DNA from: Dehalococcoidia bacterium
Lineage (GTDB): Bacteria; Chloroflexota; Dehalococcoidia; Dehalococcoidales; UBA1222
Reading direction: 5' to 3'
Length of the DNA stretch: 64,000 nucleotides
Assembly: GCA_009779255.1 (NCBI GenBank)
Contig: WREQ01000002.1
Location: 59 to 64,058 of the forward strand
Of the stretch, positions 7,223 through 64,000 are shown one piece after another. The position numbers and the translations under genes were made by a program. The first letter of the stretch is position 1. Each line of letters starts with the position of its first letter. The notes beneath the pieces were generated by a model. The model was not told the DNA's origin. It was given only the letters and a program-made list of their open reading frames with translations, and searched no databases.

Positions 7223-8186
7223 CCCCACCCCCCAACAAAAAACGGCGCTGGCCGAGATTTTGCCGCACATCGCCGACAGCGCAACGCCGCTCTCCAATGC
7301 CAAGATTAGCGAACTTTCCGATCTGACCGCCGGTGAACTGAAACAATTTGAAGCCGTCTGGAGCGGCATGGACACCGAACGAAAACAACAACTTCTGTCA
7401 CGCCTGTCCGAGTTGAGCGATGATAATGTGGAACTCAACTTTGACCGCATCTACCGCAACGCCATCTACGACATCGACGACACCGTGCGAAAAGAAGCCA
7501 TCGAAGGACTATGGGAAAGCTCCGACACTTCGCTGATCAGGCCGCTGCTGCGACTGGCGCAAGATGACCCAGCCACGGACGTGCGAGCCGCCGCCACCGC
7601 CGCGCTGGGACGTTTTTCACTGCTGGCAGAGCATCATAAAATCTCCGCTGAGAACCGCACGCGTATTTCCGAGGTGCTGCTGGCGGTAATCCAAAAGCGT
7701 GAGGAATCACTGGAAGTACGCCGCCGCGCACTGGAAGCCGTCTCGCCCATCAGTCTGCCAGACGTCACACGAGCCATCTGGGAGGCCTACCGCCACGAGG
7801 AGCCGGAAATCAAAATCAGCGCGGTGTACGCCATGGGCCGCAACTGCGACCTGTTATGGATGCCGACCGTGCTCAAGGAAATGGACAGCGACGACCAGGA
7901 GATGCGCTACGAAGCCGCAACCGCTGCCGGCGAACTGGGTGAAGCGGAGGCCATACCGCAGTTGGTGGAACTCACCCGTGACACCGACACAGAAGTCAAA
8001 ATGGCTGCTATCCTGGCACTGGGTAAAATCGGCGGGCAGGAGGCCAGGCAACGCCTGCGCGTGCTGCTTTCCAGCAAAAGCCGTGCCGTGCGCGAGGCCG
8101 CCGGGCAGGCCATGGCCGAACTGGAGTCAGGCGAAGTGCCGCTCAATCCCCACGAGGCCGGTGTCGATGAGCAGGATACCGATTAG
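7194..8186 (+). CDS. HEAT-repeat protein
   Basis: 330 aa with recurring HEAT/PBS-lyase-like units (..VRKEAIEGL.., ..VRAAATAALGR.., ..EVKMAAILALGKIGG.., ..RAVREAAGQAM..). Confidence 0.75.
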   Translation: MVKMNPQKSDPTPQQKTALAEILPHIADSATPLSNAKISELSDLTAGELKQFEAVWSGMDTERKQQLLSRLSELSDDNVELNFDRIYRNAIYDIDDTVRKEAIEGLWESSDTSLIRPLLRLAQDDPATDVRAAATAALGRFSLLAEHHKISAENRTRISEVLLAVIQKREESLEVRRRALEAVSPISLPDVTRAIWEAYRHEEPEIKISAVYAMGRNCDLLWMPTVLKEMDSDDQEMRYEAATAAGELGEAEAIPQLVELTRDTDTEVKMAAILALGKIGGQEARQRLRVLLSSKSRAVREAAGQAMAELESGEVPLNPHEAGVDEQDTD

Positions 8187-37533: not shown

Positions 37534-38127
37534 TCAGGGATACCTCTCAACTAACTGGAACTTTATACCATTCTCCACACAATACCGGTGAGCGTATGAA
37601 TCTGGAGGGCAGATGATGGTGAGGTTGGGGCACTCATAAAAAGCTTCAGCGCCAATACGGACCACACTACCAGGTATCGTTACACTTTCTAAGTTCAAAC
37701 AACCAGCGAAAGCCCCCCAGATTACAGCGTCCCCATCTCTCGGCGTAAACCCGCCGATGTATGTTACACTGAGTGGTATATATATGGTTGTCAGCCTTTC
37801 GCAACCAAGGAATGCTGTATCGTCAATGCCTATTACTCTTCTGCCATCAATCTGCTCTGGTATAACAACATCGCCGTCAGCGCCCGTATATCCAGTTATT
37901 ATCACCATATACATATACTCAGTTGGCGGATGCCAAATTATTGGTAGCTGTTCGAACCAAATTATAGAGTAGGTAAAATCCGAAGCAGGGTTTGGTTCAG
38001 TTCTACTGGTGTTAGTAAGAGTCGGCTGACTGGTTACTGTATTAAGTGAACAACTCACATTGCATAAAGCTAGTAGCGCTACTATGCATACAACAGATAA
38101 AGTACTGCTAAAAACCCCAACCTTCAT
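37534..38127 (-). CDS. secreted/lipoprotein-like leucine-rich-repeat (BspA/LRR_5-type) surface protein
   Basis: 197 aa. N-terminal hydrophobic signal with ..LLALCNVSC... Repeats of the ..AF..C..L..I.IP.SV..IG..AF.. type. Visibly lower GC than the flanks. Confidence 0.8.
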   Translation of the reverse strand: MKVGVFSSTLSVVCIVALLALCNVSCSLNTVTSQPTLTNTSRTEPNPASDFTYSIIWFEQLPIIWHPPTEYMYMVIITGYTGADGDVVIPEQIDGRRVIGIDDTAFLGCERLTTIYIPLSVTYIGGFTPRDGDAVIWGAFAGCLNLESVTIPGSVVRIGAEAFYECPNLTIICPPDSYAHRYCVENGIKFQLVERYP

Positions 38128-48585: not shown

Positions 48586-49632
48586 CTACCCATTTTTGAT
48601 GTACCTCGTGTTTCGCGCCGTGCCGACTTTTTTGATGACGCCCTCTCTGACCATAGAGCCAAGCACCGCCTCTATTGTTGTCGGGCTTACATCTGGCAGG
48701 ACATACGCCAGTTCCGCTTTCGAAACTGGAAGCAGATTGTTCAGCACGGCCGCCTCCACCCGCCGCATCTTTGTAACGCGCACACCTTGCACCACGGCAA
48801 AACGCTTGTCCAGTTCCTTGTAACACACCAGCAGCGCTTGCAGAAAGTTTTCGATGAACTGGAAATAGCTGTTCCGGTTCTCATGCCATCCGTCAGAGGA
48901 CAAGCGCAGCGCTTCATAATACATCGTCTTGGTATGGTTTATCTGTTCCTCGAAGGAGATATACCTCCCCACGTAAAACCCATTCTTGTACAGCAGGAGC
49001 AGAGAGAGCAGCCGTGACATCCTGCCGTTTCCATCCAAAAACGGGTGTATACAGAGGAAATCGAGAACAAAGCATGGTATGAGTAAAAGGCTGTTGACAC
49101 CAGCGCTGCGGCGCGCGTCCATGAAGGCCAGGAGCAACTGCTCCATCGTATCCGCCGTTTCGCTGGCCGGGGTGGGAGCAAAACGGACTTTTCGCCTGCC
49201 GGAGGCGTCCGTCTCCATGATGACGTTATCGGACTGCTTGTAGGTACCGCCGCCTGCCGAAGTATACGAAAGCATGGCGCGGTGAAGCCCCAGAATGTCA
49301 GCTTCACGCATGTCAAGCGCCTTGTAGCCATTATGGACTGCGGCGAGAGCGTCGCGGTATCCCGCTATTTCCATTTCATCATGGTTCAACGGCGCGCTGT
49401 TTTGATTGACAATCTCGGCAATACGTTTCTCACTGGTAACAATGCCTTCGATTTCATTTGACCCTTTGACGGACTGCACCCGCGCAATGCCTTCCAGACT
49501 CGTAAAGATGCCGGGATATGAATCCTTGCGGGCAATATCCAGCGCTTTGAGTTCACTGATGGCACCAGTGATGTTAAGAAGTTTAGCTGGGAGTAGACCG
49601 TTTTCCAAAAATGAGTAGTCAAAACGCTTCAT
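48586..49632 (-). CDS. Fic-family protein (putative AMP-transferase) with an N-terminal inhibitory-helix motif and a C-terminal winged-helix-like region
   Basis: 348 aa. Canonical Fic motif HPFLDGNGRMSR. Upstream SNEIEG fits the (S/T)xxxE(G/N) auto-inhibition motif. Confidence 0.9.
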   Translation of the reverse strand: MKRFDYSFLENGLLPAKLLNITGAISELKALDIARKDSYPGIFTSLEGIARVQSVKGSNEIEGIVTSEKRIAEIVNQNSAPLNHDEMEIAGYRDALAAVHNGYKALDMREADILGLHRAMLSYTSAGGGTYKQSDNVIMETDASGRRKVRFAPTPASETADTMEQLLLAFMDARRSAGVNSLLLIPCFVLDFLCIHPFLDGNGRMSRLLSLLLLYKNGFYVGRYISFEEQINHTKTMYYEALRLSSDGWHENRNSYFQFIENFLQALLVCYKELDKRFAVVQGVRVTKMRRVEAAVLNNLLPVSKAELAYVLPDVSPTTIEAVLGSMVREGVIKKVGTARNTRYIKNG

Positions 49633-49837: not shown

Positions 49838-51601
49838 GTGAAACCACTGCATTTTGTCCTGCGCTACGCCAGGGCTTATTCCCGCGTCCTCGTCATCACC
49901 ATCGCCTCCATGGTTTTGTTGGTAGGCGGCGGGCTTATCATCCCGTGGATTATCGAGAACCTGCTGACGACTCTGCAGTCGGGAGACGTCTCCGACCAGA
50001 TGCTGCGCGATGTTTCACGCCTGTCGTTGATTGCGATGGGCATCTTCCTGCTCCGCGCCGTTTTTTCATTCACACAGAACTACTGCGCCCACATCGCCGG
50101 CTGGGGCGTGGTAGCCGACGTGCGCAAGTTCATCTACGAGCGTATGCAGCGCTTCAAACTGCGATTCTATGAGGACAAACAGACCGGCCAGCTGATGACA
50201 CGCGTCATGGACGACACCGGCAAGTTTGAGGACATGATTGCCCACGCTGTTCCGAACTTACTCGTCAGCGCGGTGACACTGCTGGGCGTAATCACGGTGC
50301 TGATGATTTTCAACTGGCAACTGGCGCTGCTGTCGTTGATACCTATTCCATTCGTGATACTCTTCATGCGCGGCTTCGCCAAATACGTGCGCCCGGCCTT
50401 CCGCCTGAGACAAGCGGAGCTGGCCAACATCAACGCCGTGCTAGCGGACAACATCACCGGCATCCGCGACATCAAGGCCTTCACCCGCGAGGAGGAGGAG
50501 GCGCTGCGCTTCAACCGCGGTATTGAACGCCACCGCCGGCTGTCGCTCAAGGCGATTAAAATGATGAGCGCCTTCGAGCCGCTGGTGGACTTAGCATCAT
50601 CGGCAGGTACACTGATTGTAATTTACTTCGGCGGGCGGCTGGTGGTGAATGAGAGCCTCACCGTGCCGGTGTTGGTGGCCTTCTTCCTTTACCTGAGCCA
50701 GTTGTACGCACCTGTGCGCACGATGTCGATTTCCTGGGAGCACGTGCAGGAAGCGCTGGCCTCAGCCGACCGTCTGACAGAGCTGGTGGATGAAGAGCCG
50801 GAGGTCAATGACGCGCCGGGAGCGCTGCAGCTAACGGAGCGGGCGCGGGGGGAACTGGTCTTCCGCAATGTCACTTTCGGATACAAAAACGGCATTACCG
50901 TGCTGGAGCATATTGATCTCGAAATCCCGGCCAAGAGCGTGGTAGCGCTGGTAGGTCCGAGCGGCGTCGGCAAGAGTACACTGGTAAGCCTGATACCGCG
51001 ATTTTATGATGTGAGCAACGGCGCGGTGATGCTGGACGGGAAAGACATCAAAACCATCACACTGGAAAGCCTGCGCAGGCAGGTGAGCATCGTGCTGCAG
51101 GATGTGTTCCTGTTCCATGGCACGGTGCGTGATAACATCCTCTTCGGCAGACCTGACGCCACAGACGAGGAGGTAATCGCCGCCGCAAAGGCGGCCAACG
51201 CCCACGAGTTTGTGACGGCAATGCCGGACGGCTATGATACGCTGGTAGGCGAACGCGGCGTCAAACTATCAGGCGGGCAGAAGCAACGCATTTCCATCGC
51301 GCGGGCACTGCTCAAGGACGCTCCGGTGCTGATACTGGACGAAGCAACCTCTTCTATTGACACCGAAACCGAGGTGCTGATACAGCAGGCACTGGAAAGA
51401 CTGATGGCGGGGCGCACCACAATCATCATCGCACACCGGCTGTCCACCATCCGCGGGGCAGATCAAATCGTGGTGCTGGACGGCAAACATATCGCCGAGC
51501 GCGGTACCCACGCCGCACTGATGACGCGGCATGGGCTGTACGCCCGCCTCACCGGCGCACAGAATCGGCTGGACAGAGGGGAATCCTCCTCTACCAGTTA
51601 A
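49838..51601 (+). CDS. ABC transporter, fused permease/ATPase (MsbA/exporter type)
   Basis: Six-TM domain plus NBD with Walker A GPSGVGKST, signature LSGGQKQR and Walker B ILILDEATS. The start is uncertain: GTG 49838 is chosen because the track ORF opens at 49739 with a non-transporter-like N-terminus. Confidence 0.9.
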   Translation: MKPLHFVLRYARAYSRVLVITIASMVLLVGGGLIIPWIIENLLTTLQSGDVSDQMLRDVSRLSLIAMGIFLLRAVFSFTQNYCAHIAGWGVVADVRKFIYERMQRFKLRFYEDKQTGQLMTRVMDDTGKFEDMIAHAVPNLLVSAVTLLGVITVLMIFNWQLALLSLIPIPFVILFMRGFAKYVRPAFRLRQAELANINAVLADNITGIRDIKAFTREEEEALRFNRGIERHRRLSLKAIKMMSAFEPLVDLASSAGTLIVIYFGGRLVVNESLTVPVLVAFFLYLSQLYAPVRTMSISWEHVQEALASADRLTELVDEEPEVNDAPGALQLTERARGELVFRNVTFGYKNGITVLEHIDLEIPAKSVVALVGPSGVGKSTLVSLIPRFYDVSNGAVMLDGKDIKTITLESLRRQVSIVLQDVFLFHGTVRDNILFGRPDATDEEVIAAAKAANAHEFVTAMPDGYDTLVGERGVKLSGGQKQRISIARALLKDAPVLILDEATSSIDTETEVLIQQALERLMAGRTTIIIAHRLSTIRGADQIVVLDGKHIAERGTHAALMTRHGLYARLTGAQNRLDRGESSSTS

Positions 51602-51634
51602 CCATCGGGCGGACTGCGCGTCCCTCCGGAGATT

Positions 51635-51877
51635 CTAAAGCAGAATGACCCCGGTTATCACCAGCGCCGCCGCGATAACCAGCGCAATCCTGCCTCCGGT
51701 AATCAGAGCGCCCGGCTGCGGGCTTTCCGGATTATGGGTAAGGAATTCGCGCAGGTCTTCCTTCTGCGCCAAAGCATTATCCAAATCGACTCTTTCACGG
51801 CGTCCCCACAGAACAAACCCTATTCCCAGGCCGGCAAAAAACGCGGCCAGCACAAAAGCCCATGCGGCAGCTGACAC
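51635..51877 (-). CDS. small two-TM membrane protein (80 aa)
   Basis: GTG start preceded by AAGGAGGA. Two hydrophobic helices flank a charged loop. Confidence 0.6.
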   Translation of the reverse strand: MSAAAWAFVLAAFFAGLGIGFVLWGRRERVDLDNALAQKEDLREFLTHNPESPQPGALITGGRIALVIAAALVITGVILL

Positions 51878-52113
51878 GGCATTCCTCCTTGCGAATCTTT
51901 ACCAGAATAATATAGAGAAGCGAGCTGAATAGCAATAGGACACATGCCGCCAGTCACCCGTTATGAGCCAGATGCCACACTAAAGACGGGTGCCGAAGTT
52001 CCGGGCAAGCGTTTAATGGCTGAATCCGCAGATGCACCATTTGCCAGCGTTTGCCAAGCCCGCCGTTTATCCCCGGCTTTGGCGCGCACCGCTTATAAAG
52101 CTTTCGGGTAGTC

Positions 52114-53763
52114 CTACCTCAGCTCCAGCTCTTTCTTCTTTTTATCAAAGATGAGCACGACGACAAGAATCTCCAGGATGAAGATAGTCGCGTTCACAAT
52201 GGTCCAAATGTCCACCAGCCGCACAGGCATGCTCATGTCCTCGGTCAGGAAGAAGACGATGACGCCGATAACAGCCAGGATGCCGACAACGAACAGCCAG
52301 AGGTACTTCACTGTGCGGACTTCCTGGTGGCCTTCTTTATCTTTGACACCATTCCACAAGAAGGCTCTGATCAACACCAGAACGGCCAGCAGCACCCCCA
52401 GGAGACAGAGGATGAGGTTGACGAGCGCCCATGGGTCGCCGTCTGAAGGCGGCGGCGGCGGATCACCACCCGTCGTCTGCGTCCAGTTGGCCCTTACGGT
52501 GACGTCGTTTGCCGGCATGGTGAAGGTGGTGGTGGCGCTGCTTGAGTTAGCCAGCGTAACGCCGCCCGAAACAACCGTCCAGCCAATGAAGGTATATCCG
52601 TCTCTGGCGCCGGCGTGGATGGTTACGACATTGCCGGGGGTGTAAGTGCCAGCGCCGGTGGTAGAAGCATAGCTGTCGTTGACGTAGACGGTATAGGCAG
52701 GAGGAGGCGGCGGGGAAGTCGTCTGTGTCCAATTGGCTCTTACGGTGACGTCGTTTGCCGGCATGGTGAAGGTGGTGGTGGCGCTGCTTGAGTTAGCCAG
52801 CGTAACGCCGCCCGAAACGACTGTCCAGCCCGCAAAGGTATATCCGTCTCTGGCGCCGGCATTGATGGTTACAACACTGCCAGGGGTGTAAGTGCCAGCG
52901 CCGGTGGTAGAGGCATAGCTGTCATTGACGTAGACGGTATAGGCAGGAGGAGGCGGCGGAGAAGTCGTCTGTATCCAATTGGCTCTTACGGTGACATCGT
53001 TTGCCGGCATGGTAAAGGTGGTGATACCGCTGTTTGGAGTAAACAGGGTCACGCCGCCGGAAACGACCGTCCATCCGGTGAAGGTATATCCGTCTCTGGC
53101 GCCGGCATGGATGGTTACGACCTCACCTTGGGCATAAGTCCCAGCGCCCGTGGGAGAAGCATAGCTGTCGTTGACGTAGACTCTATAGGCGGGCGGCTGC
53201 GGGGTGGCGGTAGTGGGAGGGGCGATATAAGAATGATTATAGCTTATACCATCGACCTTATCGCCAGCCTGGTTGCGGATAACCACTGTTGTTATGTCAT
53301 GCTCACTGCCGGCACGGACTTCAATGGTATACACCGCGTCGTCATAGGAATAACCAGGGAGACCGTGGGACGTAATATGGGTAAGGTCATAAGTATAGGT
53401 ACCGGTAGCCGCCACGCTGAAATCCAGAATGAGAGGCTGGTTCACCGTACCCGCCAGGGTAAAGATATAACTACCAGAATCAATGTAGCCACCGCTGATG
53501 TTGCTTGGCAAGGGATGGAAAGGCGTCCTTGGGGTAAGCTTATAGGTAAAACCAGCATTCGGAGCTGCTGCCGTATCGCCGGTAAAGTGCTGTTCAACGC
53601 TCTGGGTAACCACGCCCGGGGCCGCCATCACTGCAGGCGGGGTACCCAGGATATTCCCAAGCAGACAAACGGCTAAAATGACAGGGAGGGCAACCCCACC
53701 GACTTTGCCTATTTTAGCCTGGAGTATTCTTTTTATACCGGAAAGCATGGTGGTCATATTCAT
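52114..53763 (-). CDS. membrane-anchored pilin-domain / Listeria-Bacteroides-repeat surface protein (candidate basal pilus subunit)
   Basis: 549 aa. Signal peptide, then an FctA/Spy0128-like pilin-type segment (GFTYKLTP.., GTYTYDLTH...YSYDDAVYTIEVR). Three 82-aa repeats (..GYTF.GWTVVSGGVTL...FTMPANDVTVRANW) with PPPPP linkers. Three C-terminal TM helices and a KKKK tail. No sorting motif. Confidence 0.8.
   Translation of the reverse strand: MNMTTMLSGIKRILQAKIGKVGGVALPVILAVCLLGNILGTPPAVMAAPGVVTQSVEQHFTGDTAAAPNAGFTYKLTPRTPFHPLPSNISGGYIDSGSYIFTLAGTVNQPLILDFSVAATGTYTYDLTHITSHGLPGYSYDDAVYTIEVRAGSEHDITTVVIRNQAGDKVDGISYNHSYIAPPTTATPQPPAYRVYVNDSYASPTGAGTYAQGEVVTIHAGARDGYTFTGWTVVSGGVTLFTPNSGITTFTMPANDVTVRANWIQTTSPPPPPAYTVYVNDSYASTTGAGTYTPGSVVTINAGARDGYTFAGWTVVSGGVTLANSSSATTTFTMPANDVTVRANWTQTTSPPPPPAYTVYVNDSYASTTGAGTYTPGNVVTIHAGARDGYTFIGWTVVSGGVTLANSSSATTTFTMPANDVTVRANWTQTTGGDPPPPPSDGDPWALVNLILCLLGVLLAVLVLIRAFLWNGVKDKEGHQEVRTVKYLWLFVVGILAVIGVIVFFLTEDMSMPVRLVDIWTIVNATIFILEILVVVLIFDKKKKELELR
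52465..53196 (-). repeat. three tandem ~246-bp coding repeats
   Basis: Repeat starts PAYRVYVND / PAYTVYVND / PAYTVYVND at residues 191, 273 and 355. Copies 2 and 3 are almost identical at the DNA level by eye. Confidence 0.9.
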
Positions 53764-53764
53764 C

Positions 53765-54709
53765 CTACCCCTCGTATTGCAAATTGCGGTGGTTACGGCG
53801 ACGTTTGTTCCGCATGATTAAGAACAGAATCAGTACCAGGAAGAGAACCAGCAGGATTACGATGATAATCTTGCCCCACAGTGGGATACTCTCCCACAGG
53901 CCAGGAAGACCATCAACCGCCTTGGACTCTCCAATAAGTTTGTTCGTTTCCGACTCGTTAAAAGTTTCATAGGTAATCCTCCCGATAAGGATATCCCGTC
54001 CGCTGGTGGAGGAGCTGGAACAGGTGGCGAGGAGGATAATCCGATCCGAGGTGTCAACCCCGATATCGCGGGAATGGATGGCCATTTCCCCAATGCGATC
54101 AAGATATGCCTGTTGGGCTGGCTGCCCCGTGACGCGGGGATGGAAAATCTGGTAATCATAAGCACTGGTGTGGATAAAAGCGAAGAACTCCAGCCCGTAT
54201 TCTTTGCCATCATAATACAACATACCGTAAGGACGGGCTTCAAAATATTTCTGGTCGGCGAAGTTCCCAATCTCCCCGAACATGACCTGTTTTTCCATGT
54301 GGTGCCCGTAAATGATAGAGTTGAAATCGGAAAAATTCCGACTGCTACTGGCATCAATGAATATGGCGCCGGACAGGGAATATTTCCCTTCGGCGTTGGT
54401 ATTGACATACTTGAGGTTGTTTCTCCCCTGAACTACGGGATAGTCGATATTGGTGCCGTAGACCGTAAGCCAGGCGCAGACATCAGTGTTAATTGCCTGG
54501 AGTCTGGTAAAGGCCTCCCCGGCGTTCTCAGCTGTGGGTTTATATATCTCATAGCGGGCGGCGCTGGCAGCACCTGTGACTTGGTTGGAATCCCACATGG
54601 CGTAGCAGCCGATAGTAATAAGTAGCATCAAAGACATCAGAACGACGGTGTCTAAAACACCATGCGCCGCCTTGATGGCCCTCTTTCCTATCTTAACTGC
54701 TACGCTCAT
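53765..54709 (-). CDS. sortase, class B-like, with an extra C-terminal TM helix
   Basis: 314 aa. N-terminal anchor. ..NTDVCAWLTVYGTNIDYPVVQG.., His motif IYGHHM, Cys motif LLATC, Arg in SGRDILIG. C-terminal IIIVILLVLFLVLILFLI plus RNKRRR. Confidence 0.88.
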   Translation of the reverse strand: MSVAVKIGKRAIKAAHGVLDTVVLMSLMLLITIGCYAMWDSNQVTGAASAARYEIYKPTAENAGEAFTRLQAINTDVCAWLTVYGTNIDYPVVQGRNNLKYVNTNAEGKYSLSGAIFIDASSSRNFSDFNSIIYGHHMEKQVMFGEIGNFADQKYFEARPYGMLYYDGKEYGLEFFAFIHTSAYDYQIFHPRVTGQPAQQAYLDRIGEMAIHSRDIGVDTSDRIILLATCSSSSTSGRDILIGRITYETFNESETNKLIGESKAVDGLPGLWESIPLWGKIIIVILLVLFLVLILFLIMRNKRRRNHRNLQYEG

Positions 54710-54751
54710 ATGGGTTCTTACCTTAAAGGTTCGTGTTTTTAAGCTACAACC

Positions 54752-56173
54752 TTAGGAGATAACCGGTTCCTCTTGGTTGTCTTTCCTTTTGCGGGACTTG
54801 ATGGCCACGAAGAGTACGAGGCCGCCGACAGCCAGAACAATGAGGCCTACGAAGGCCAGGGTGTTCAGGTTGAGGCCGGTGGGCGGATCTTCGCTGTAGG
54901 TGTTGGTGAACAGGGCATAAGAATCACCCTGCTCAATGTCGCCTACATACAGGTTGGGGATGGGGGTGGCGTCAGCGGTGGGATCGTTGACGTTCAGGTA
55001 GACAACAGGGATGCCGAGGGGAGAGGCAACAGTGCTGCTCCAGCCGCCCTTAGCGTTGCCGTAGGCTTCGCCGTTAAGGTAAACAACGGCAAATGGGTAG
55101 TACTTGACAGCTCCGGCTTCGGCGACGGCGTAGGTGGCACTAGCCTCCAGGCCGGAGAAGAAGACCAGGCGCTGGCCGTCTTCCAGTGTGATACCGGTCT
55201 TCGCTACACCAGAGATGAATTCAATGTAGAGACCGTAGGCGCTAGTACCGGCAGAGTCGTTGACGTTGGTGACGTTAAGCCACGTACCAGGGTTGAGGAT
55301 GTCTTCCTGCATGACGGCAGCCCAGTACACTGAGGTGTTGTCAACGGTAGCAGGCTGGGTGACGGTCACGGTGAAATCAAAAGAGGTTACGGTACCGCCG
55401 ACGATATCCTTTTGAATGTACAGGAAGCCTTTGCCGTCGGTGGGGGTAGTGGTGTCGAATATGCGGTCGATGGTGTTGGTGAAAGCCAGGCCGTAGGCGC
55501 CTCCGCTGGTATCTACCTTGCCCAGGGTATCGGTAAAGTCATCGCCGAAGTCATCAACAGCCTTGAAGCCATAGACGCCGAAGATATAGAGGTCACCGAC
55601 TTGATGGTCAGGGCAACCAGCAGTATTGCATTCCTCAATGACGACGTAGAGGTAATACACGGCCTCGGAATAGTGCAGGTAGTCCTCGTAGTCAACACCG
55701 TCGGCTGTTACGTCGTCGCCAAGGAAGGCAGGGTTGGTGGCAGGCACGGTTTCCACAATCTCGTAGATGTAAATACCGGCAAGGCTCCAGGTAACGGCGT
55801 CTAAATCAATCTTTTCTTCCGCGTAGTAGTTGTCGTAGCCGTTAGGAACGGCAATGTCAGCTGCAGTCTCGTTGCCGTCAAAGGAGATGATGACGGTGTT
55901 GGCGCCACTAGTGACAAAGGTAAGCCCGGGCATGGTACTAGCGACGGTCTTATCGCCATTAAAGGAATACGGGGTGATGGTGAATTCAAAGTCGAGAGCG
56001 CCCGAATAGTTCGTAAATACAATACCGGAGGGGACCTTCAGCACTTTGGTAACGTAGGCTTCGGTGATAGCGTCTGGATCCACGGGGTCGGCCATAACAG
56101 ACACCGGCAGTGTTGTAAGACACAGCGCCAGCGTCATCAGGGAGGCCAAGGCTAGTTTGAGTTTCTTGGTCAT
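54752..56173 (-). CDS. two-domain pilin-like sortase substrate (candidate backbone pilin), sorting signal DPPTG
   Basis: 473 aa. Signal peptide ..LPVSVMA/DP. ..IYIYEIVETVP...YSEAVYYLYVVIEE... Two domain-terminal FTNT motifs. C-terminus EDPPTG, hydrophobic helix, KSRKRK. Confidence 0.85.
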   Translation of the reverse strand: MTKKLKLALASLMTLALCLTTLPVSVMADPVDPDAITEAYVTKVLKVPSGIVFTNYSGALDFEFTITPYSFNGDKTVASTMPGLTFVTSGANTVIISFDGNETAADIAVPNGYDNYYAEEKIDLDAVTWSLAGIYIYEIVETVPATNPAFLGDDVTADGVDYEDYLHYSEAVYYLYVVIEECNTAGCPDHQVGDLYIFGVYGFKAVDDFGDDFTDTLGKVDTSGGAYGLAFTNTIDRIFDTTTPTDGKGFLYIQKDIVGGTVTSFDFTVTVTQPATVDNTSVYWAAVMQEDILNPGTWLNVTNVNDSAGTSAYGLYIEFISGVAKTGITLEDGQRLVFFSGLEASATYAVAEAGAVKYYPFAVVYLNGEAYGNAKGGWSSTVASPLGIPVVYLNVNDPTADATPIPNLYVGDIEQGDSYALFTNTYSEDPPTGLNLNTLAFVGLIVLAVGGLVLFVAIKSRKRKDNQEEPVIS

Positions 56174-56279
56174 GCTTTTCCTTTCAGTTTTTTTTATTTT
56201 TTTGTTTTATATAAACAGGGGGTTAAGCCCGCCTGATACCTTTCATGGCAAGTTCTGTCATGTTTTAGTTGACACAAGG

Positions 56280-57047
56280 CTAGAGTCCTCTCCAGCGCAA
56301 GATAGTAATAACCGAACCCTTGGTGTCCTTGACGTTCACGGCTCCGTAGATACGGCTGTCGGTAGCGCTGGCTCGGGCATCACCCAAAACGAAGACCTCA
56401 TCTGCCTTTAACAGCATGGGAAAGCTGACGTCGCTCATGTACCGCTCGGTCTTCTCATAAATATCCGGCTCCTGCACCAAGGCGCTGTTCACCAGTAGGC
56501 CGTGGGTGTTGATATCAACAGTATCCCCTGCCACAGCCACCACCCTGCGAACCTGGGTCTGCCCCTCAAAGGTCAGGAGGAGAAGGTCGCCGGGTTCGTA
56601 GGACTTGTCCCAACGGTAATACATCACCAGGTCCCCGTCCTTCATCGCCGGAACCATCCCGGGTTCGCTGTTGTAGTGAATGCCATAGACAAAAGTGAAA
56701 GCCGCCACGGCCACGGCCACAATGATGCCGATTTTTGCTCCCAACCCCCCCAGCTCCCGCAGGAAAGAGTAGGAAGAAGAGCGGCGGGCAGGCGCCTTAG
56801 GGCGCGGCGGGACAGGGGTTGCGCCGCTACCCTCACTGCAAGTGGAAGTCGCGCTGCCAACCCCAGCAGGCCTTTTGCCCAACTCTACCTGGGAGGCAGA
56901 CGACACCTTTCCCTCACTGTGGCCGGAGGATATCACGGCATCGCTCCTGCCGGGTGGCGGCAAGATGACGGTATCCTCCCCCGAGGTGGGGGCAGGCAAA
57001 CCAGACGGGTTATTGTTTGAATCCATCTTGTCTTCAAGTCTCTCCAT
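56280..57047 (-). CDS. signal peptidase I (S26) homologue lacking the Ser/Lys dyad (SipA/LepA-like pilus accessory protein)
   Basis: 255 aa. Pro/Ser/Gly-rich N-terminal region, one TM. GMVPAMKDGD aligns to SMxPTLxxGD (Ser to Gly130). VRRVVAVAGD aligns to xKRxxGxPGD (Lys to Arg167). GDARASATDSR box retained. Confidence 0.8.
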   Translation of the reverse strand: MERLEDKMDSNNNPSGLPAPTSGEDTVILPPPGRSDAVISSGHSEGKVSSASQVELGKRPAGVGSATSTCSEGSGATPVPPRPKAPARRSSSYSFLRELGGLGAKIGIIVAVAVAAFTFVYGIHYNSEPGMVPAMKDGDLVMYYRWDKSYEPGDLLLLTFEGQTQVRRVVAVAGDTVDINTHGLLVNSALVQEPDIYEKTERYMSDVSFPMLLKADEVFVLGDARASATDSRIYGAVNVKDTKGSVITILRWRGL

Positions 57048-57050
57048 AGA

Positions 57051-60000
57051 TTAGGCTGCCTGATCGGCGCGGCGACGTGACTTCCATGTGGTAAATGACG
57101 CCACAGCACCTAAGGCCAGAGCGATGAGACCAAGGAAGTGTTGTCCTCCCAGAGAAAGACCAGTGGGCGGAACAACGGCGTCCCAATGATTAGTGAATGC
57201 GAACTCGCGGTCAATCGTTATGGCATGAAGCTCGGTATCATTGCCTACCGTGACAGAGGTGCCTTCGCTGTCGGTAAAAGAGACCATGTAGGGGATAGGC
57301 ATCGGGTTGCCATTGGCATCCACACCAAGGAAATCCACTGTCTCGACGACTCTGATAAAGCCTACCAGCGGGACGCCCGCTATCACGATGTGCTGGCCGT
57401 GCTTGAGGTAGAATGTCGCAGCGCCGTTAGCATCCAGCCTCAACGTGCCGGTTTTGTCCACAGTTGTGCCGGTGTAGATGACGTAGCCAAACTCCGTGCC
57501 CACCGCAAACGGCGTGGGCAGGATGGGATTGGGCGTCGCACTCGGGTCGCCCTGGTCGCTGAAGAAGTACACCGTAAACTCCCAGTCCATGGTCGGGTTG
57601 CCCATCTTGCCTGTCACTGTCTTGCTCACCGTCAATGTCGTGCCGGAATTTATGTAGTTAATCTGGTCGTTGGTCAGTAGCGCGCCGTCGAATTGGCTGT
57701 TGATGCGGGTGATGGCGCTGAGGAGCGCATAGTTGACCGGCGGCGTATAACTTTGTCCCGCCGTGTTCCCGATTACCATCGCCGTACCGCCGCTCACGAC
57801 AATACCGTCTGCGATTCTGATGTTGCCGTAGGCAATGCTCGGGAACTTAAGTGGGTTGTTGTACGCGTTATGTGTGACGCCGCCGTCATTGCTGTCGCGC
57901 CATTCCGTGTAGATGCCGCCGCCGTCCTGCGTTGCCGTGTTGTCCGAGATGACGCCGCCGGTCATTTCGAGAACGCCGTCGATGGTCACATACACGCCGC
58001 CGCCATTGGCATTGGCCTTATTACCAGGAATCTTACCGCCGTTCATGGTAAATGAGCCATCGTTGTAAACGCCGCCGCCGTTGGTAGCTGTGTTGGCATC
58101 AGGGGCATTCTCACCGCCGATCGTGCCGCCGGTCATGGTAAAAGTTCCGGCACTATACACACCGCCGCCATTGTTGACTGCCGTATTACCAGAAACCTTA
58201 CCGCCTTCCATGGTAAATGTGCCGCCAACGGCTACATACACGCCGCCACCGTTGTTTGCTATGTTGCGGTTGATAACGCCATCACCAGGCTTCTCAAAGA
58301 CACCGCTGGCGCCTACGTATATGCCGCCGCCGTCGCTGGCAGCTCTATTATTAGAAACAGCACAGTTATCCCCCATTTCAAACGCGCCGTTATTATATAC
58401 GCCGCCGCCGAACGAAGCTTCGTTGTAGCTGATCTCGCCGTTGTAGTTCCTCATCTCAAAAATGCAGCCGCTCGCAATATACACGCCGCCGCCAAGTTCA
58501 GCCGTGTTCGCATGCCCGTTAACGCCAATGGCGCCACCGTACATCTCAAACCTGCTTGCGTTGGTAACATACACACCGCCGCCGTCATCAATTGCTGTAT
58601 TACCGGAAATCTCACCGTTAAACAAGGTGAAGAAAGACGCATCGGCTACATATACGCCACCACCCAGGGTCGCAGTGTTGCCTCTAATGACGGGAACGAT
58701 AGTATCGCTGGACATTTCGAATTCGCCGTTGATTGCGCACACGCCGCCGCCATACTCAGCCGTATTGCCACTGATCTCGCCGCCTTTGATAACAAGCCGC
58801 TTGCCTGCTGTGCTATTGCTGACGTAATACACGCCGCCACCGCCGCCAACTGCCGTGTTGTCGCTGATGGTGCCGGCTTCTATAACGAAGCTACCGCTAC
58901 TTCCGTCATAATACACGCCACCGCCATCCTGCGATGCCGTGTTGTCGGAGATAACGCCGCCTTTCAGGATGAAGCCGCTGGCAATGCTACTTCCGTCATA
59001 ATACACGCCGCCGCCGTTGGTAGCTGTGTTGCCGGAGATGGCACCGTCTTCCATGATGAAGCTGTTGACAGTGCTGCTTCCGTCATAATACACGCCGCCG
59101 CCGTTGGATGTTGCCGTATTGCCGGAGATCGTGCCGTCTTCCAGGGTGAACGTGCCGGCGTTGTAAACACCGCCGCCGTTGGATGTTGCCGTATTGCCGG
59201 AGATCTTGCCGTCTTCCATGGTAAAGGTGCCCCAGTTGTAAACGCCGCCGCCGCGGGCAGCTGTGTTGGCATCAGAGGCATTCTCGCCGCCGATCGTGCC
59301 GCCGGTCATGGTAAAAGTTCCGGCATTATACACGCCGCCGCCAACGCCATTGGTCGCATTACCAGAAATCTTACCGCCTTCCATGGTAAAGGGTCCCTCG
59401 TTGTAAACGCCGCCGCCGGCGGATGTTGCCGTATTGCCGGAGATGGTACCGTCTTCCATATTGAACGTGTCGACGTTGTAAACACCGCCGCCGATTGTTG
59501 CCGTATTGCCGGCGATCGTGCCGCCTTCCATGGTAAAGAGGCCCTCGTTGTAAACGCCGCCGCCGTTGGTAGCTGTGTTGGCATCAGAGGCATTATCACC
59601 GCCGATCGTGCCGCCGGTCATGGTGAACGTGCCACTGTTAAGCACACCGCCGCCAGATGCTGCCGTATTGCCGGAAATCGTGCCGTCTTCCATGGTAAAG
59701 GTGCCCTCGTTGAAAACACCACCGCCGCCGTCCTGCGTTGCAGTATTGCCGGAGATGGTGCCGTCTTTCATGGTGAAGGTGCCGCCGACATAGATATAAA
59801 CGCCGCCGCCGCCGAATGCTGCCGTATTGCCGGAAATCGTGCCGTCTTCCATGGTGAAGGTGCCGCCGACATAGATATAAACGCCGCCGCCATCGGTAGC
59901 TGTGTTGGCATCAGAGGCATTCTCGCCACCGATCGTGCCGCCGGTCATGGTGAAGGTACCCATCATGAAGCTACAAACGCCGCCGCCGATTGATGCCGCA

Positions 60001-63000
60001 TTGCCGGAGATGGTGCCGTCTTCCATGGTGAATGTACTGGCGTTGAAAACACCGCCGCCGTTGCCGCCACTGGATGTTGCCGTATTGCCGGAGATCGTGC
60101 CGTCTTTCATAGTAAAGGTGCCACTGTTAAGCACGCCACCGCCGCTGCCGAGTGTTGCCGTATTGCCGGAGATCGTGCCGTCTTCCATGGTGAACGTGCC
60201 GACGTTATATACACCGCCGCCGTTGTAGGTGACTTTGTTGCCGGAGATGACGCCGCCGGTCATGGTGATTGTGCCTGTGCCACTGTTGGCCACACCGCCG
60301 CCATTGCTGATTGCCGTATTACCAGAGATGGCGCCGCCTTTCATAGTGAAGGTGCCGCCGAAGTTGCTGATGTAAACGCCGCCGCCGGTGTCATTCTTAC
60401 AATTCGTTATCACAGCACCGTCTTCCATGGTGAAGGCGCCGCCGTTATTCACCGCCACACCGCCGCCAGTGACATCCGTGTCATCGCCGTCAAGGATGAT
60501 ATTGCTGATGGTTAGGCTGCCATTTACAGTGAGGTGCCGATTTGTACTGAGCTGCGTAATCGTCCACTGGTTACCAGTGTCCGACGTGAGGGTGATGTTT
60601 TTGCCCGCCGGTATGACCACCGCCGCGTTCTTATACGACGTAGCGATTGGCCCCTTCGGATCAGTTCCGGCAAAGTCAGACATATCGAGGTCATCTTCCA
60701 GCGCAACTATCGTCCACGGATTTCCCGTATTTGTCGGGTCGCAAGCCGCAACCGCGTCTGCCAGCCAGTAGTAGGTGCCAATGAGGGTGCCTGTAGCGGG
60801 GGTGCCGTCCCAGACTTGGTAGCGATCGGGGATCGGCGAGGTAACAATAAGGTCATCGCCGCTGACGCCTATGATATAGCCGGGTATTGCGGTCGCTGCA
60901 GAGGAATGCAACGTGAAATGCGACGCATTCGAGTTAATGGCACCATCGACGACCAGCACCGCCGTTGCAGGCGGGACCGGCCATGCGGACGTGGGTGTTG
61001 CGCCATAACCCAGGCGGACCTCAACAGGGATCGTCGGGGTGAACGTTGCTGGAGTAGACAAGCCGCCCGTGTTAACCAAGACCGTTCCCGTTATCGTCGG
61101 GGAACCGCTCAGGCTGACAAGCCCTCCGGCCACATTGTTGTAGACCGCATAACCTGTGGTGGCCGAGACAGAGCCGCCGTTGATGTTGATAGAACCGGTC
61201 ATTTGGTTGAATATCGCATAGCCTGTCGTGGCCGATACATTGCCGCCGCTGATGTTGACCATGCCAGTCGAGTGGTTGTTGATCGCCCTGCCGGTGGTGG
61301 CAGATACCGTTCCGCCGCTGATTGTGATGGTGCCAGCATTATCGTTGTAGATCGCTCTGCTGTTGGTGTTGTTTGCGTTGTTCTGTACTTTGCCGCCGGT
61401 GATCGTGAGGATATTATTGCCGGCTGTGCCGCCTGCAAGATATATCGTGCCCTGAGCAGCAGCCGGATTATCCGAAGTGACCTCTGTGGGGATCGTGGAG
61501 GTTGTTTCCGATATTGTTATCAGGCCTGTCGAGTTGTTGTATATCGCAACCCCGACCGTGGCCGAGACAGTGCCGCCGCTGACATTGATCGCGCCAGTCG
61601 AATTGTTGTAGACCGCCATGCCGCTTGTGGCCGAGACCCTTCCGCCACTGATGTTGACCGTGCCGGCACCATTGTTAAAGATCGCGTTGCCGCCGGCTGC
61701 GGTGTTCTCCACTATACCGCCGGTGATCGTGAGGACACCACCTACATGGCGTATCGTACCCTGAGCGCTGTTGGTATGCGCCGAAGTGATCCTTGTGGGG
61801 ATCGTGGAGGTTGTTTCCGATATCACGATCGTGCCAACCACCTGGTTGTTGATCGCAATGCCAGTGCCGGACGATACCGTTCCGCCGCTGATTGTGAGCG
61901 TCGCACTGGTAGATTGGTTGACGATCGCAGCGCCGGTGGTGGACGATACCGTTCCGCCGGTGATCGTGACCGGACCGCCTGACGATCCGGTGAGGATCGT
62001 AGTGCCGGTGCCGGACGACACTATTGCCGAACCGCTGATTGTGACCGCGCCTGCCCCGAAGTTGTAGATCGCCATGCCTGTGTCAGTGGCCGAGACCGTG
62101 CCGCCGGTGATGTTGACCGTGCCGGTCGATTGGTGCCAGATCGCCCTGCCGGTCGTCGCCGTGACAGCGCCGCCAGTGACGGTGACCGTACCTGTCCCGG
62201 CGGTGCCGATCGTCCCGTTGACGCCAGTCGATGAGACCACACCGCCGGTGACGGTGAGGTTACCGCTGTTGACCTGTACGGCACGCGCATTAGACTGTGT
62301 GTTGGAGTTGTTTATTGCGCCGGTGCTTGTGACGTTCACGCCGGAGCTGATGTTAATTACACCGGTGGCCACCGAGCCGGTGGTATTGGCCGTAATCGAG
62401 CCGCCCAGAGTTATGTTGCCCCAGTTCTCAGAGAGTGCTGTACTGTTCTCGAACGTTATATTCTGCGAACCTATGTTGAGCTGGCCTGTGCCGGTGTATG
62501 GTGTGGTGGCCGTGTTTAGTGCGTTCGCGAAGAATATGCTGCAAGCGTTACCTTCCGCATCCGCGCGTATCAGGTCTATCAGGTTCTGAACGTTGGTGTT
62601 GGTATAACCGGCGCCGCCTATCTGATAGTGTGAGCCGTCGTCCATGAATCCAATCGCCGCAAAGGCGGATGTGCTTACGTACACTATGTACTCATAGGTC
62701 TTATCGAGTGCCCTAAGGACAAGGTTATTCCCGACCTCAATTATCTCGAAACCTGCGCCGGACGGCTGGTGAAGCTGGAAGCTGTTCAGATAGCTTGTGC
62801 CGTTGACATTAGCTCCGTTCACCACAACGACGTCGCCGTGTGCGTAAGCGGCTAACTGGACCGTATACATCTTGCTTACGGGCGCAAACGGCGTGCCAGT
62901 TGTGAGAGCGGTCAGTCTGTTCTGGGTGACGTAGATCGTTCCCGTTATGGTCGGATTGCCGCCGAGATTCACTGCTCCTGCCGCCGCATTGCAATAGACC

Positions 63001-64000
63001 GCATAAACGTCGCCCGTGACCGTGCCGCCGGTGATGTTCACGATCCCGGAACTTGCGTTGTATATCGTGCGGGCGTTGGCATTGGCCGCAGTGTTCGATA
63101 CCGTGCCGCCGGATATGTTGATCGTTCCGCCTGCTACGTTGCGTATCGTACCCTGGGTGTTGTTAGTGTTCGCCGATGTCACGATCGTCGGGACGGTGCT
63201 CGACGCTTCGGATATCGTTATCACTCCGAGGGAGGAGTTCCAGATCGCCACGCCTGCGCCGCTCTGTACCGTGCCGCCGGATATATTGACCGCTCCGGTG
63301 GAGACATTCTCGAGCGCGTGGGCAGCACCGGTGTTCCGCACCGTGCCGCCGGATATGTCAATCGTTCCGTTGAATTGGTTCACGATTGCGGAGTACGGGC
63401 TGTTGGCTGATACCATGCCGCCGGATATCATTATCACTCCGCTGGAGTTGTTCCGGATCGCGACGCCGCCGTTGGCTGAGACCGTACCGCCGGTGATGTT
63501 CACAATCCCGGAACCTGCGTTGTATATCGTGCGGGCGTTGCCATTGGCCGAGGGATTCGATACCGTGCCGCCGGATATGTTGATCGTCCCGCCTACGACA
63601 TTGTGTATCGTGCCGCTGGTGGCGGATACGTTCGCCGATGTCACGAGCGTCGGGTTGGTGCTCGACGCTTCGGATATCGTTATCACTCCGGTGGAGTCGT
63701 TCCATATCGCCGCGCCTGTGTTGCTCCGGACCGTACCTCCGGATATGCTGACCGTGCCGGCCCCATTGTTAAAGATCGCGTTGCCTGTGCCGGTGTTCTC
63801 GATCAAGCCGCCGGTGATCGTAAGCCTCGGCCCCGTGGTCGCGCCTGAGGAGATGTCGATCACGTAACTTCCGGGGTTCCCTCTTATGATCGTCGGGTTC
63901 GACGTTTCCGATATCGTTACATGCCCCGTGCTTAAGCTGTATATCACCCTGCCCGAGCCTGTGTTCACTACCGTACCGCCGGATATGTCGATCGCTCCGG
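57051..64000 (-). CDS. giant beta-helix-repeat surface adhesin, sorting signal VPPTG (5'-truncated by the window edge)
   Basis: The frame is open to position 64000 (codons upstream of the listed GTG read ..GAIDISGGTVV..), giving more than 2,300 aa. Two repeat families: ISGGTVSxxxGxAIxN, and GGGVYxxGTFTMxxGxISGNTA. C-terminal CnaB/pilin-like domain (TVSKTVTG...AFTNHW), then VPPTG, TM, KSRRR. Confidence 0.9.
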   Translation of the reverse strand, partial: GAIDISGGTVVNTGSGRVIYSLSTGHVTISETSNPTIIRGNPGSYVIDISSGATTGPRLTITGGLIENTGTGNAIFNNGAGTVSISGGTVRSNTGAAIWNDSTGVITISEASSTNPTLVTSANVSATSGTIHNVVGGTINISGGTVSNPSANGNARTIYNAGSGIVNITGGTVSANGGVAIRNNSSGVIMISGGMVSANSPYSAIVNQFNGTIDISGGTVRNTGAAHALENVSTGAVNISGGTVQSGAGVAIWNSSLGVITISEASSTVPTIVTSANTNNTQGTIRNVAGGTINISGGTVSNTAANANARTIYNASSGIVNITGGTVTGDVYAVYCNAAAGAVNLGGNPTITGTIYVTQNRLTALTTGTPFAPVSKMYTVQLAAYAHGDVVVVNGANVNGTSYLNSFQLHQPSGAGFEIIEVGNNLVLRALDKTYEYIVYVSTSAFAAIGFMDDGSHYQIGGAGYTNTNVQNLIDLIRADAEGNACSIFFANALNTATTPYTGTGQLNIGSQNITFENSTALSENWGNITLGGSITANTTGSVATGVINISSGVNVTSTGAINNSNTQSNARAVQVNSGNLTVTGGVVSSTGVNGTIGTAGTGTVTVTGGAVTATTGRAIWHQSTGTVNITGGTVSATDTGMAIYNFGAGAVTISGSAIVSSGTGTTILTGSSGGPVTITGGTVSSTTGAAIVNQSTSATLTISGGTVSSGTGIAINNQVVGTIVISETTSTIPTRITSAHTNSAQGTIRHVGGVLTITGGIVENTAAGGNAIFNNGAGTVNISGGRVSATSGMAVYNNSTGAINVSGGTVSATVGVAIYNNSTGLITISETTSTIPTEVTSDNPAAAQGTIYLAGGTAGNNILTITGGKVQNNANNTNSRAIYNDNAGTITISGGTVSATTGRAINNHSTGMVNISGGNVSATTGYAIFNQMTGSININGGSVSATTGYAVYNNVAGGLVSLSGSPTITGTVLVNTGGLSTPATFTPTIPVEVRLGYGATPTSAWPVPPATAVLVVDGAINSNASHFTLHSSAATAIPGYIIGVSGDDLIVTSPIPDRYQVWDGTPATGTLIGTYYWLADAVAACDPTNTGNPWTIVALEDDLDMSDFAGTDPKGPIATSYKNAAVVIPAGKNITLTSDTGNQWTITQLSTNRHLTVNGSLTISNIILDGDDTDVTGGGVAVNNGGAFTMEDGAVITNCKNDTGGGVYISNFGGTFTMKGGAISGNTAISNGGGVANSGTGTITMTGGVISGNKVTYNGGGVYNVGTFTMEDGTISGNTATLGSGGGVLNSGTFTMKDGTISGNTATSSGGNGGGVFNASTFTMEDGTISGNAASIGGGVCSFMMGTFTMTGGTIGGENASDANTATDGGGVYIYVGGTFTMEDGTISGNTAAFGGGGVYIYVGGTFTMKDGTISGNTATQDGGGGVFNEGTFTMEDGTISGNTAASGGGVLNSGTFTMTGGTIGGDNASDANTATNGGGVYNEGLFTMEGGTIAGNTATIGGGVYNVDTFNMEDGTISGNTATSAGGGVYNEGPFTMEGGKISGNATNGVGGGVYNAGTFTMTGGTIGGENASDANTAARGGGVYNWGTFTMEDGKISGNTATSNGGGVYNAGTFTLEDGTISGNTATSNGGGVYYDGSSTVNSFIMEDGAISGNTATNGGGVYYDGSSIASGFILKGGVISDNTASQDGGGVYYDGSSGSFVIEAGTISDNTAVGGGGGVYYVSNSTAGKRLVIKGGEISGNTAEYGGGVCAINGEFEMSSDTIVPVIRGNTATLGGGVYVADASFFTLFNGEISGNTAIDDGGGVYVTNASRFEMYGGAIGVNGHANTAELGGGVYIASGCIFEMRNYNGEISYNEASFGGGVYNNGAFEMGDNCAVSNNRAASDGGGIYVGASGVFEKPGDGVINRNIANNGGGVYVAVGGTFTMEGGKVSGNTAVNNGGGVYSAGTFTMTGGTIGGENAPDANTATNGGGVYNDGSFTMNGGKIPGNKANANGGGVYVTIDGVLEMTGGVISDNTATQDGGGIYTEWRDSNDGGVTHNAYNNPLKFPSIAYGNIRIADGIVVSGGTAMVIGNTAGQSYTPPVNYALLSAITRINSQFDGALLTNDQINYINSGTTLTVSKTVTGKMGNPTMDWEFTVYFFSDQGDPSATPNPILPTPFAVGTEFGYVIYTGTTVDKTGTLRLDANGAATFYLKHGQHIVIAGVPLVGFIRVVETVDFLGVDANGNPMPIPYMVSFTDSEGTSVTVGNDTELHAITIDREFAFTNHWDAVVPPTGLSLGGQHFLGLIALALGAVASFTTWKSRRRADQAA
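57911..60480 (-). repeat. array of degenerate ~22-25-codon coding repeats (GGGVY..GTFTM.DG.ISGNTA)
   Basis: Dozens of recurrences are visible both in the translation and as recurring DNA strings (e.g. ggtgccgtcttccatggtgaa, acgccgccgcc). Boundaries are approximate. Confidence 0.85.

Follow-up and report, generated by a model that had tools for sequence, protein, structure and literature searches.

Does a gene that annotation pipelines call a signal peptidase still encode a peptidase when it lies among the genes of a putative sortase pilus? The question is raised by an open reading frame (ORF) on the minus strand of a 64,000-nt stretch of a Dehalococcoidia bacterium contig (WREQ01000002.1, positions 59 to 64,058; the whole stretch is referred to below as the window). 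This ORF, which we call sip, spans 56280..57047 (−) and has an intact reading frame with a 255-residue product, Sip. An identical protein is publicly listed under the name 'MAG: signal peptidase I [Dehalococcoidia bacterium]' (MAG, metagenome-assembled genome), a label that follows from its score on the NCBIfam equivalog TIGR02227, 'signal peptidase I', where Sip reaches 76.6 bits against a cut-off of 47. Matches in Pfam, in TIGR02227, among PDB sequences and in Foldseek mark sip as the ORF of a SipA/LepA-type pseudo signal peptidase. We consider it likely that Sip descends from signal peptidase I but is catalytically dead, and that it belongs to the SipA/LepA family and has a non-catalytic role in pilus assembly.

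The former active site of Sip

HMMER alignments with two active peptidases, that of B. anthracis (4nv4) and SpsB of S. aureus (4wvh), placed Gly130 (codon 56658..56660, minus strand) under the Ser of the SMxPTL motif and Arg167 (codon 56547..56549, minus strand) under the Lys of VKRxxGxPGD. These are the positions of the Ser nucleophile and the Lys general base, Ser90 and Lys145 in E. coli, and three independent MAFFT alignments returned the same two columns. In the alignment made here, Gly130 also paired with Asp48 and Arg167 with Gly85 of S. pyogenes SipA (SpySipA), residues that Young et al. mapped to E. coli Ser90 and Lys145, respectively (PMC4049620). The original prediction for this stretch, made from the letters alone, had given the same ORF and codon positions and had proposed that both catalytic residues were replaced. 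Both assignments were borne out, as was the proposed relationship to the Peptidase_S26 family (PF10502), which matched residues 105–249 with an E-value of 1.5e-18 in Pfam.

A third element of the active site changed the picture of box E (GDARASATDSR, residues 222–232; 56352..56384, minus strand), which had been described as intact. G222, D223, R225, D230, S231 and R232 are indeed retained, but the Asn of this box is replaced by Ala224, and Ala228 (codon 56364–56366) stands in place of the Ser that keeps the catalytic Lys in position (Ser278 in E. coli). The third catalytic element is therefore lost as well. Box D of Sip contains no Lys, and no conserved alternative catalytic Ser or Lys was found in either of the two family sets used throughout, namely the 120 closest homologues and the best 151 representatives of 50%-identity clusters. 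As shown by these alignments, Sip lacks the Ser/Lys/Ser triad and cannot perform Ser-Lys catalysis.

Active-type controls for these columns came from related loci. We collected 80 such loci (L001–L080) in a scan taking one genome per species, and six of them carry an extra S26 gene that has kept the Lys and, in all but one case, lies just upstream of the adhesin gene (L014 6149–6691; L018 6395–6937; L023 6415–6972; L025 4212–4805; L027 4349–4918; L020 505–1212). At the general-base column all six paralogues have Lys; at the nucleophile column they have Ser (Thr in L020), and four also have Ser at the third column. Since Ser and Lys appear at these very columns in the paralogues, the alignment separates active from inactive forms.

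Could Sip nevertheless be an active signal peptidase, dedicated to the pilus and cleaving the signal peptides of the adhesin or the pilin with non-canonical residues? Such an enzyme would have to combine another Ser with Arg167, Lys136 or a group supplied by the substrate. Its standing above the equivalog cut-off would agree with this idea, but the canonical nucleophile is Gly, and 12 residue types occur at this position across the family. Other candidate residues were considered and rejected. Ser127, which the original prediction had named as a possible nucleophile that would overturn it, aligns with V, A, T, R, L or I in the 120 closest homologues, and the Lys-free box D offers no general base beside it. 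S231 is invariant and K136 nearly so among close homologues, yet true peptidases have both residues too, and there S231 and the KDG motif (TLKDGE in SpsB) are non-catalytic; moreover, K136 is Ser in the functional SpySipA and R, Q, N or H in many representatives. SpySipA itself, which is essential for polymerisation and has kept its peptide groove, is without peptidase activity, and mutating the residues at the head of its groove had no effect (PMC4049620). The backbone pilin of the window does have an AXA-type signal peptide (VMA/DP), which needs some enzyme to cleave it. In some related loci, however, a separate true Ser/Lys peptidase adjoins the pseudo one, and their presence together argues that the two have different jobs. 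An active Sip thus appears very improbable to us.

How is the rest of the protein built? An AlphaFold2 model, computed from an alignment of 116 homologues, has a mean predicted local distance difference test score (pLDDT) of 71.8. Together with the sequence and the homologue alignment, it divides Sip into a Pro/Ser/Gly-rich cytoplasmic N-terminal extension that is predicted to be disordered (residues 1–94; 56766..57047), a single transmembrane helix (residues 95–120; 56688..56765) and an extracytoplasmic domain (residues 121–255; 56283..56687), all encoded on the minus strand. The S26 fold of the latter is supported by the Pfam, PDB and Foldseek matches as well as by the model, in which pLDDT values are ∼50 over residues 1–90 and mostly 86–98 over the beta domain. 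Arg88-Arg89, ahead of the helix, points to an N-in/C-out topology, as in signal peptidases. An unusual N-terminus of ∼100 residues, rich in Pro, Ser and Gly, had been part of the original prediction; the extension is real, but it is not unusual, as lengths from 0 to 386 residues (median 79) occur for this part in the Sip family. Only its first ∼10 residues and the juxtamembrane RRxxSFLREL are conserved in comparison with the closest homologues. The ATG at 57047 lies 3 nt past the stop codon of the adhesin gene. However, the true start is probably Met8 (ATG 57024–57026), because the first residue of each of the two closest full-length homologues aligns with Met8; GGAGAG is present just before this codon.

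Kinship and constraint in a Lys-less family

To which proteins, then, is Sip most closely related? Among all PDB sequences searched with phmmer, the best matches were SpySipA (4n31, E = 2.3e-17) and LepA (4k8w, E = 3e-16), whereas the best active peptidase, 4nv4, reached only 7.3e-5. The structural comparison agreed: 4n31 was also the best Foldseek match to the AlphaFold2 model (E = 3.9e-10, template modelling score 0.79 on the target, 33% identity) and ranked above SpsB (E = 8.8e-6) and E. coli LepB. Sequence and fold therefore both support the proposal that Sip is a SipA/LepA-type pseudo-peptidase. It is a further member of this known family, mis-annotated as an active enzyme.

We also calculated a neighbour-joining tree from 122 columns, with the three diagnostic columns taken out and 500 bootstraps. 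All Lys-less proteins, including SpySipA, formed one split in 332 of the 500 bootstraps, and the two housekeeping peptidases from the PDB were split from every pilus-linked protein in all 500. With moderate support, Sip would thus belong to one Lys-less lineage with SpySipA rather than having lost its active site independently. The true peptidases linked to the related loci, which are 38% identical to Sip, grouped with the pseudo-peptidases and not with the housekeeping enzymes, which hints that the pseudo-enzyme may have arisen by duplication of a pilus-dedicated peptidase.

The family is large. In a 90%-clustered collection, Sip has at least 866 relatives at E ≤ 1e-3, and all of those with a source name are labelled signal peptidase I; a profile search of 1.84 billion representatives returned at least 429 cluster representatives at E ≤ 1e-30. 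Across this breadth, the former catalytic positions vary widely. Among the 120 closest homologues, position 130 is G in 68, S in 28, D in 20, A in 3 and T in 1, and position 228 is mainly A (89) or V (24). The best 151 representatives hold 12 residue types at position 130 (S 54, D 29, G 26, A 14 and others), with mostly Ala at position 228 (A 98, S 21). At position 167, all 120 close homologues have Arg, and we considered whether an invariant Arg might mark a re-tooled site. This reading was weakened by the representatives, in which 13 residue types occur there and Arg accounts for only 77 of the 151 (G 21, L 14, A 13, S 8, Q 5 and others). Lys was found in none of the 151. The former active-site positions thus seem free to vary, yet the general-base site is never Lys.

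The surrounding scaffold behaves differently. R168, D223, D230, S231 and R232 are invariant or nearly so across the 151 representatives, and R168, D175, D223, R225, D230-S231-R232, N187, E193 and P210 make up the constrained residues of Sip. In the homologue alignments, and thus at the level of sequence, the scaffold residues of boxes B, D and E that would line a putative peptide groove are invariant. These data weigh on the possibility that sip is a decaying relic, left without function after the duplication of a signal peptidase. Lost and variable catalytic positions are what such a relic would have, but its frame would hardly be expected to stay intact, nor its product to be 50–69% identical to homologues from other phyla, with 16 columns invariant and about 45 nearly so. 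The at least 429 cluster representatives and an operon position that is fixed across phyla speak against decay as well, and we give this possibility almost no weight. Sip is shown to be under purifying selection, and the signature of its family, as read from the alignments, is a constrained fold whose active site has been freed from selection.

This has consequences for annotation as well as for experiments. Pipelines name Sip and hundreds of its relatives signal peptidase I because these proteins score above the equivalog cut-off, although the Ser-Lys mechanism is closed to all of those examined. The list of constrained residues provides rational targets for mutagenesis, and the diverse orthologues can be used for complex prediction or reconstitution.

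The pilus cassette and its host

Which genes accompany sip? We scored sortase linkage on the 70 loci in which 3 kb or more of sequence follows sip, counting a class B homologue at E < 1e-40. A class B sortase was found downstream of sip in all 70, including L037, where the sortase ORF overlaps the end of sip. These loci cover Clostridia, Coriobacteriia, Actinomycetes, Enterococcus and the PI-2 locus of S. oralis. The pairing of SipA with a class B sortase is therefore strict in the pilus cassettes surveyed and extends well beyond streptococci. The operons known to encode SipA are likewise those that use lid-less class B sortases (PMC4049620, PMC7900414). The full five-gene order of adhesin, sip, pilin, class B sortase (srtB) and a gene for a protein with a FILTED domain was present in Coriobacteriia, Oscillospiraceae, Lachnospiraceae (Hungatella, Lacrimispora), Family XIII, Desulforamulus and Propionibacteriaceae. 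In Enterococcus raffinosus all five genes are present, the adhesin following the FILTED gene, and the sip–pilin–srtB core is kept; S. oralis PI-2 shares this sip–pilin–sortase core. In most related loci, a FILTED homologue follows the class B sortase. In many of these cassettes (L002, L010, L014, L015, L018, L021, L023, L025 and L027), a second, more distant sortase comes after the FILTED gene; no second sortase is present within the window.

In the window, the order of adhesin, sip, pilin and class B sortase is the one that recurs in the related loci, and the FCT-like interpretation of the original prediction held up. All genes of the cassette are on the minus strand. The first, identified by its ORF and by domain and repeat searches, is a candidate giant tip adhesin (57051..64000) that runs off the end of the window, which contains its C-terminal 2305+ residues. 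On a longer public ENA contig it has at least 6268 residues, and the assembly stops within its ORF. It carries dozens of Gly-rich beta-helix-type repeats (GGGVYN...FTMxGGxISGNTA) and a DUF7601 domain, and ends with a VPPTG sorting signal (...VVPPTGLSLGG..., then a hydrophobic stretch and KSRRR). Downstream of sip lies a candidate backbone pilin of 473 residues (54752..56173) with a Sec signal peptide and a C-terminal DPPTGLNLNTLAF. Its sorting region, of the DPPTG type, reads ...EDPPTGLNLNTLAF..., followed by a hydrophobic stretch and KSRKRK.

The next gene encodes a class B sortase of 314 residues (53765..54709) in which the GHH, TC and R catalytic motifs are present and which scores 183 bits on TIGR03064. 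Its closest solved relatives in the PDB are 4y4q (1e-67), which we take to be the PI-2 sortase SrtG1 (a literature search on 4y4q gave nothing), and the pilus sortase Spy0129 (3psq, 1e-43); matches to further sortase B structures range from 1e-25 to 1e-29. The last gene encodes a pilin-like FILTED protein of 549 residues at the FctB position (52114..53763). In domain searches, its N-domain was weakly similar to the N-domain of Spy0128 (3b2m, E = 0.0035), followed by three InlB-B repeats, a poly-Pro stretch and a C-terminal FILTED domain with several transmembrane segments (NF052597, 1.1e-24). This protein may provide a membrane rather than a cell-wall anchor for the pilus. We found no literature on the FILTED domain, the text matches being typos of 'filtered'.

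The intergenic gaps from adhesin to sip, pilin, srtB and the FILTED gene measure 3, 106, 42 and 1 nt, and a scan of 51500–57300 revealed no promoter- or terminator-like site in any of them. Given this tight spacing and the lack of such sites, a single operon fits. Beyond the FILTED gene, the region 51601–52114 contains an ORF for an 80-residue transmembrane protein (51635–51877), after which an ABC exporter is encoded on the opposite strand. A gene for a Fic/DOC-domain protein (48586–49632, minus strand) lies just upstream of this exporter.

Comparison of the sorting signals revealed a further common feature. The backbone pilins encoded next to sip share an extended signal, xTPTG-x(4-7)-[LMIF][PA][FY], for example VTPTGLLIDNLPF and, at the pilin C-terminus in the window (54752–54900), DPPTGLNLNTLAF, whereas the tip adhesins of those loci (VPTG or VPETG) are without the NLPF element. 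This extended signal may be a recognition element for the pair of SipA and class B sortase.

What might Sip do in such a cassette? We propose that sip is co-transcribed with the genes for the tip adhesin, the backbone pilin, a lid-less class B sortase and the membrane-anchored pilin-like protein, and that Sip would be a type II membrane protein with a disordered cytoplasmic tail, one transmembrane helix and an extracytoplasmic S26 domain. On the outer side of the membrane, an extended segment of the pilin precursor, most plausibly near the xPxTG signal, would lie in the groove of Sip (boxes B, D and E). By presenting or orienting this segment for the class B sortase, Sip would let the pilin polymerise instead of staying a monomer. 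That Sip is needed for polymerisation, has no peptidase activity and binds peptides we infer from SipA of S. pyogenes, S. pneumoniae and group B Streptococcus. The chaperone role named in the original prediction would follow from the same analogy.

Several observations weigh against this proposal. In SpySipA, the groove mutation V99R had no effect, and binding of SpySipA to pilins, sorting-signal peptides or sortase was not detected in vitro (PMC4049620). In the window, the pilin had no match among PDB sequences, the FILTED protein is without an xPxTG motif, and the locus has no LPXTG basal pilin; assembly may therefore differ in detail from the FCT model. The lack of detectable binding to pilin or sortase would also be compatible with a role other than pilin presentation, for example cytoplasmic coupling via the disordered tail, or a scaffold that stabilises the sortase complex without binding peptides. 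The cytoplasmic tails of the family are variable and often long, at up to 386 residues, but their sequence and length are poorly conserved and many homologues have next to none, whereas the conserved portion of Sip is the extracytoplasmic groove scaffold. We therefore consider such a role unlikely and favour a Sip that presents pilin segments.

The most unexpected aspect is the Dehalococcoidia core chromosome around the cassette. The rest of the window (1–51600) comprises ribosomal-protein operons, elongation factor G (EF-G), SecY, adk, map, rpoA, the shikimate pathway, metK and ahcY. Among these housekeeping genes we also noted a short ORF with a BspA-type leucine-rich repeat (37534–38127, minus strand) and a HEAT-repeat protein (7194–8186, plus strand). 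The named relatives of EF-G (34229–36322) all come from Dehalococcoidia, Dehalococcoidales or Dehalogenimonas, with 65–85% identity. The nearest named relatives of Sip, by contrast, are from Coriobacteriia, Oscillospiraceae and Family XIII MAGs. GC content is equal inside and outside the cassette, but the tetranucleotide correlation to the core is 0.57–0.73 for segments starting at or beyond 52.5 kb, compared with 0.75–0.93 upstream of the cassette. An acquired island fits this picture; the tetranucleotide shift could also stem from biased composition in surface proteins or from chimeric assembly.

Could the cassette work in such a cell? We found no report of sortase pili for Dehalococcoidia in the literature searched and, to our knowledge, cultured Dehalococcoidia lack a peptidoglycan wall. 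A working covalent-pilus system would here have Sip and the class B sortase polymerise the pilin, with the FILTED protein holding the fibre in the cytoplasmic membrane and no transfer to a wall. We regard this as doubtful for a Dehalococcoidia cell. If true, it would represent a wall-independent variant of sortase pilus anchoring that might also apply to the many loci of Clostridia and Coriobacteriia with a FILTED gene. If the assignment to Dehalococcoidia holds, sortase pili reach the Chloroflexota.

Comparison with known systems

To a specialist, a SipA homologue beside a class B sortase is unsurprising. What is added here is the breadth of the family and of its sortase linkage over several phyla, the consistent absence of Lys at the general-base position, the unexpected host and a cassette without a wall anchor. 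Among the closest described counterparts is SipA/LepA of S. pyogenes (4n31, 4k8w; FCT-2/3/4), which shares with Sip the S26 fold, the N-terminal transmembrane anchor and the loss of both the dyad and the Ser278 equivalent. Its gene also lies between those for the tip adhesin and the backbone pilin, together with a class B sortase; indeed, the FCT-2 order cpa–sipA–fctA–srtC1–fctB is that of the cassette in the window. The two proteins are about 33–34% identical and differ at the former catalytic positions, with Asp48, Gly85 and Arg in SpySipA compared with Gly, Arg and Ala in Sip. The equivalent of E. coli Gly272 is kept in Sip (G222), whereas it is Asn in SpySipA. Sip furthermore has a cytoplasmic extension of ∼90 residues, and its host is not a streptococcus.

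SipA of the PI-2 systems (S. pneumoniae, S. oralis–mitis) is more similar in sequence, with 45–49% identity over the domain and Gly at the nucleophile position in both proteins, although its general-base position is Ala rather than Arg. Both loci have the order sip, pilin and class B sortase, and the pilin signals resemble each other (VTPTG...NLPF in PI-2, DPPTG...TLAF here). However, PI-2 encodes a pair of class B sortases and lacks a FILTED-domain gene, compared with one sortase and a FILTED gene in the window. The same pairing outside streptococci is found in the necrotic-enteritis pilus locus of C. perfringens VR-10B, which we compared by its description (CnaA, FimA and FimB with a 'signal peptidase' plus a class B sortase) and which has been described as syntenic with the streptococcal loci (PMC8088525). 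Its base pilin FimB has a sortase B sorting signal, whereas the window has the membrane-anchored FILTED protein instead. Finally, active signal peptidases (LepB, SpsB and 4nv4) and the true peptidases linked to related loci have the fold, the topology and the scaffold of boxes B, D and E in common with Sip. They keep the Ser, the Lys and the Ser that positions the Lys, where Sip has Gly, Arg and Ala.

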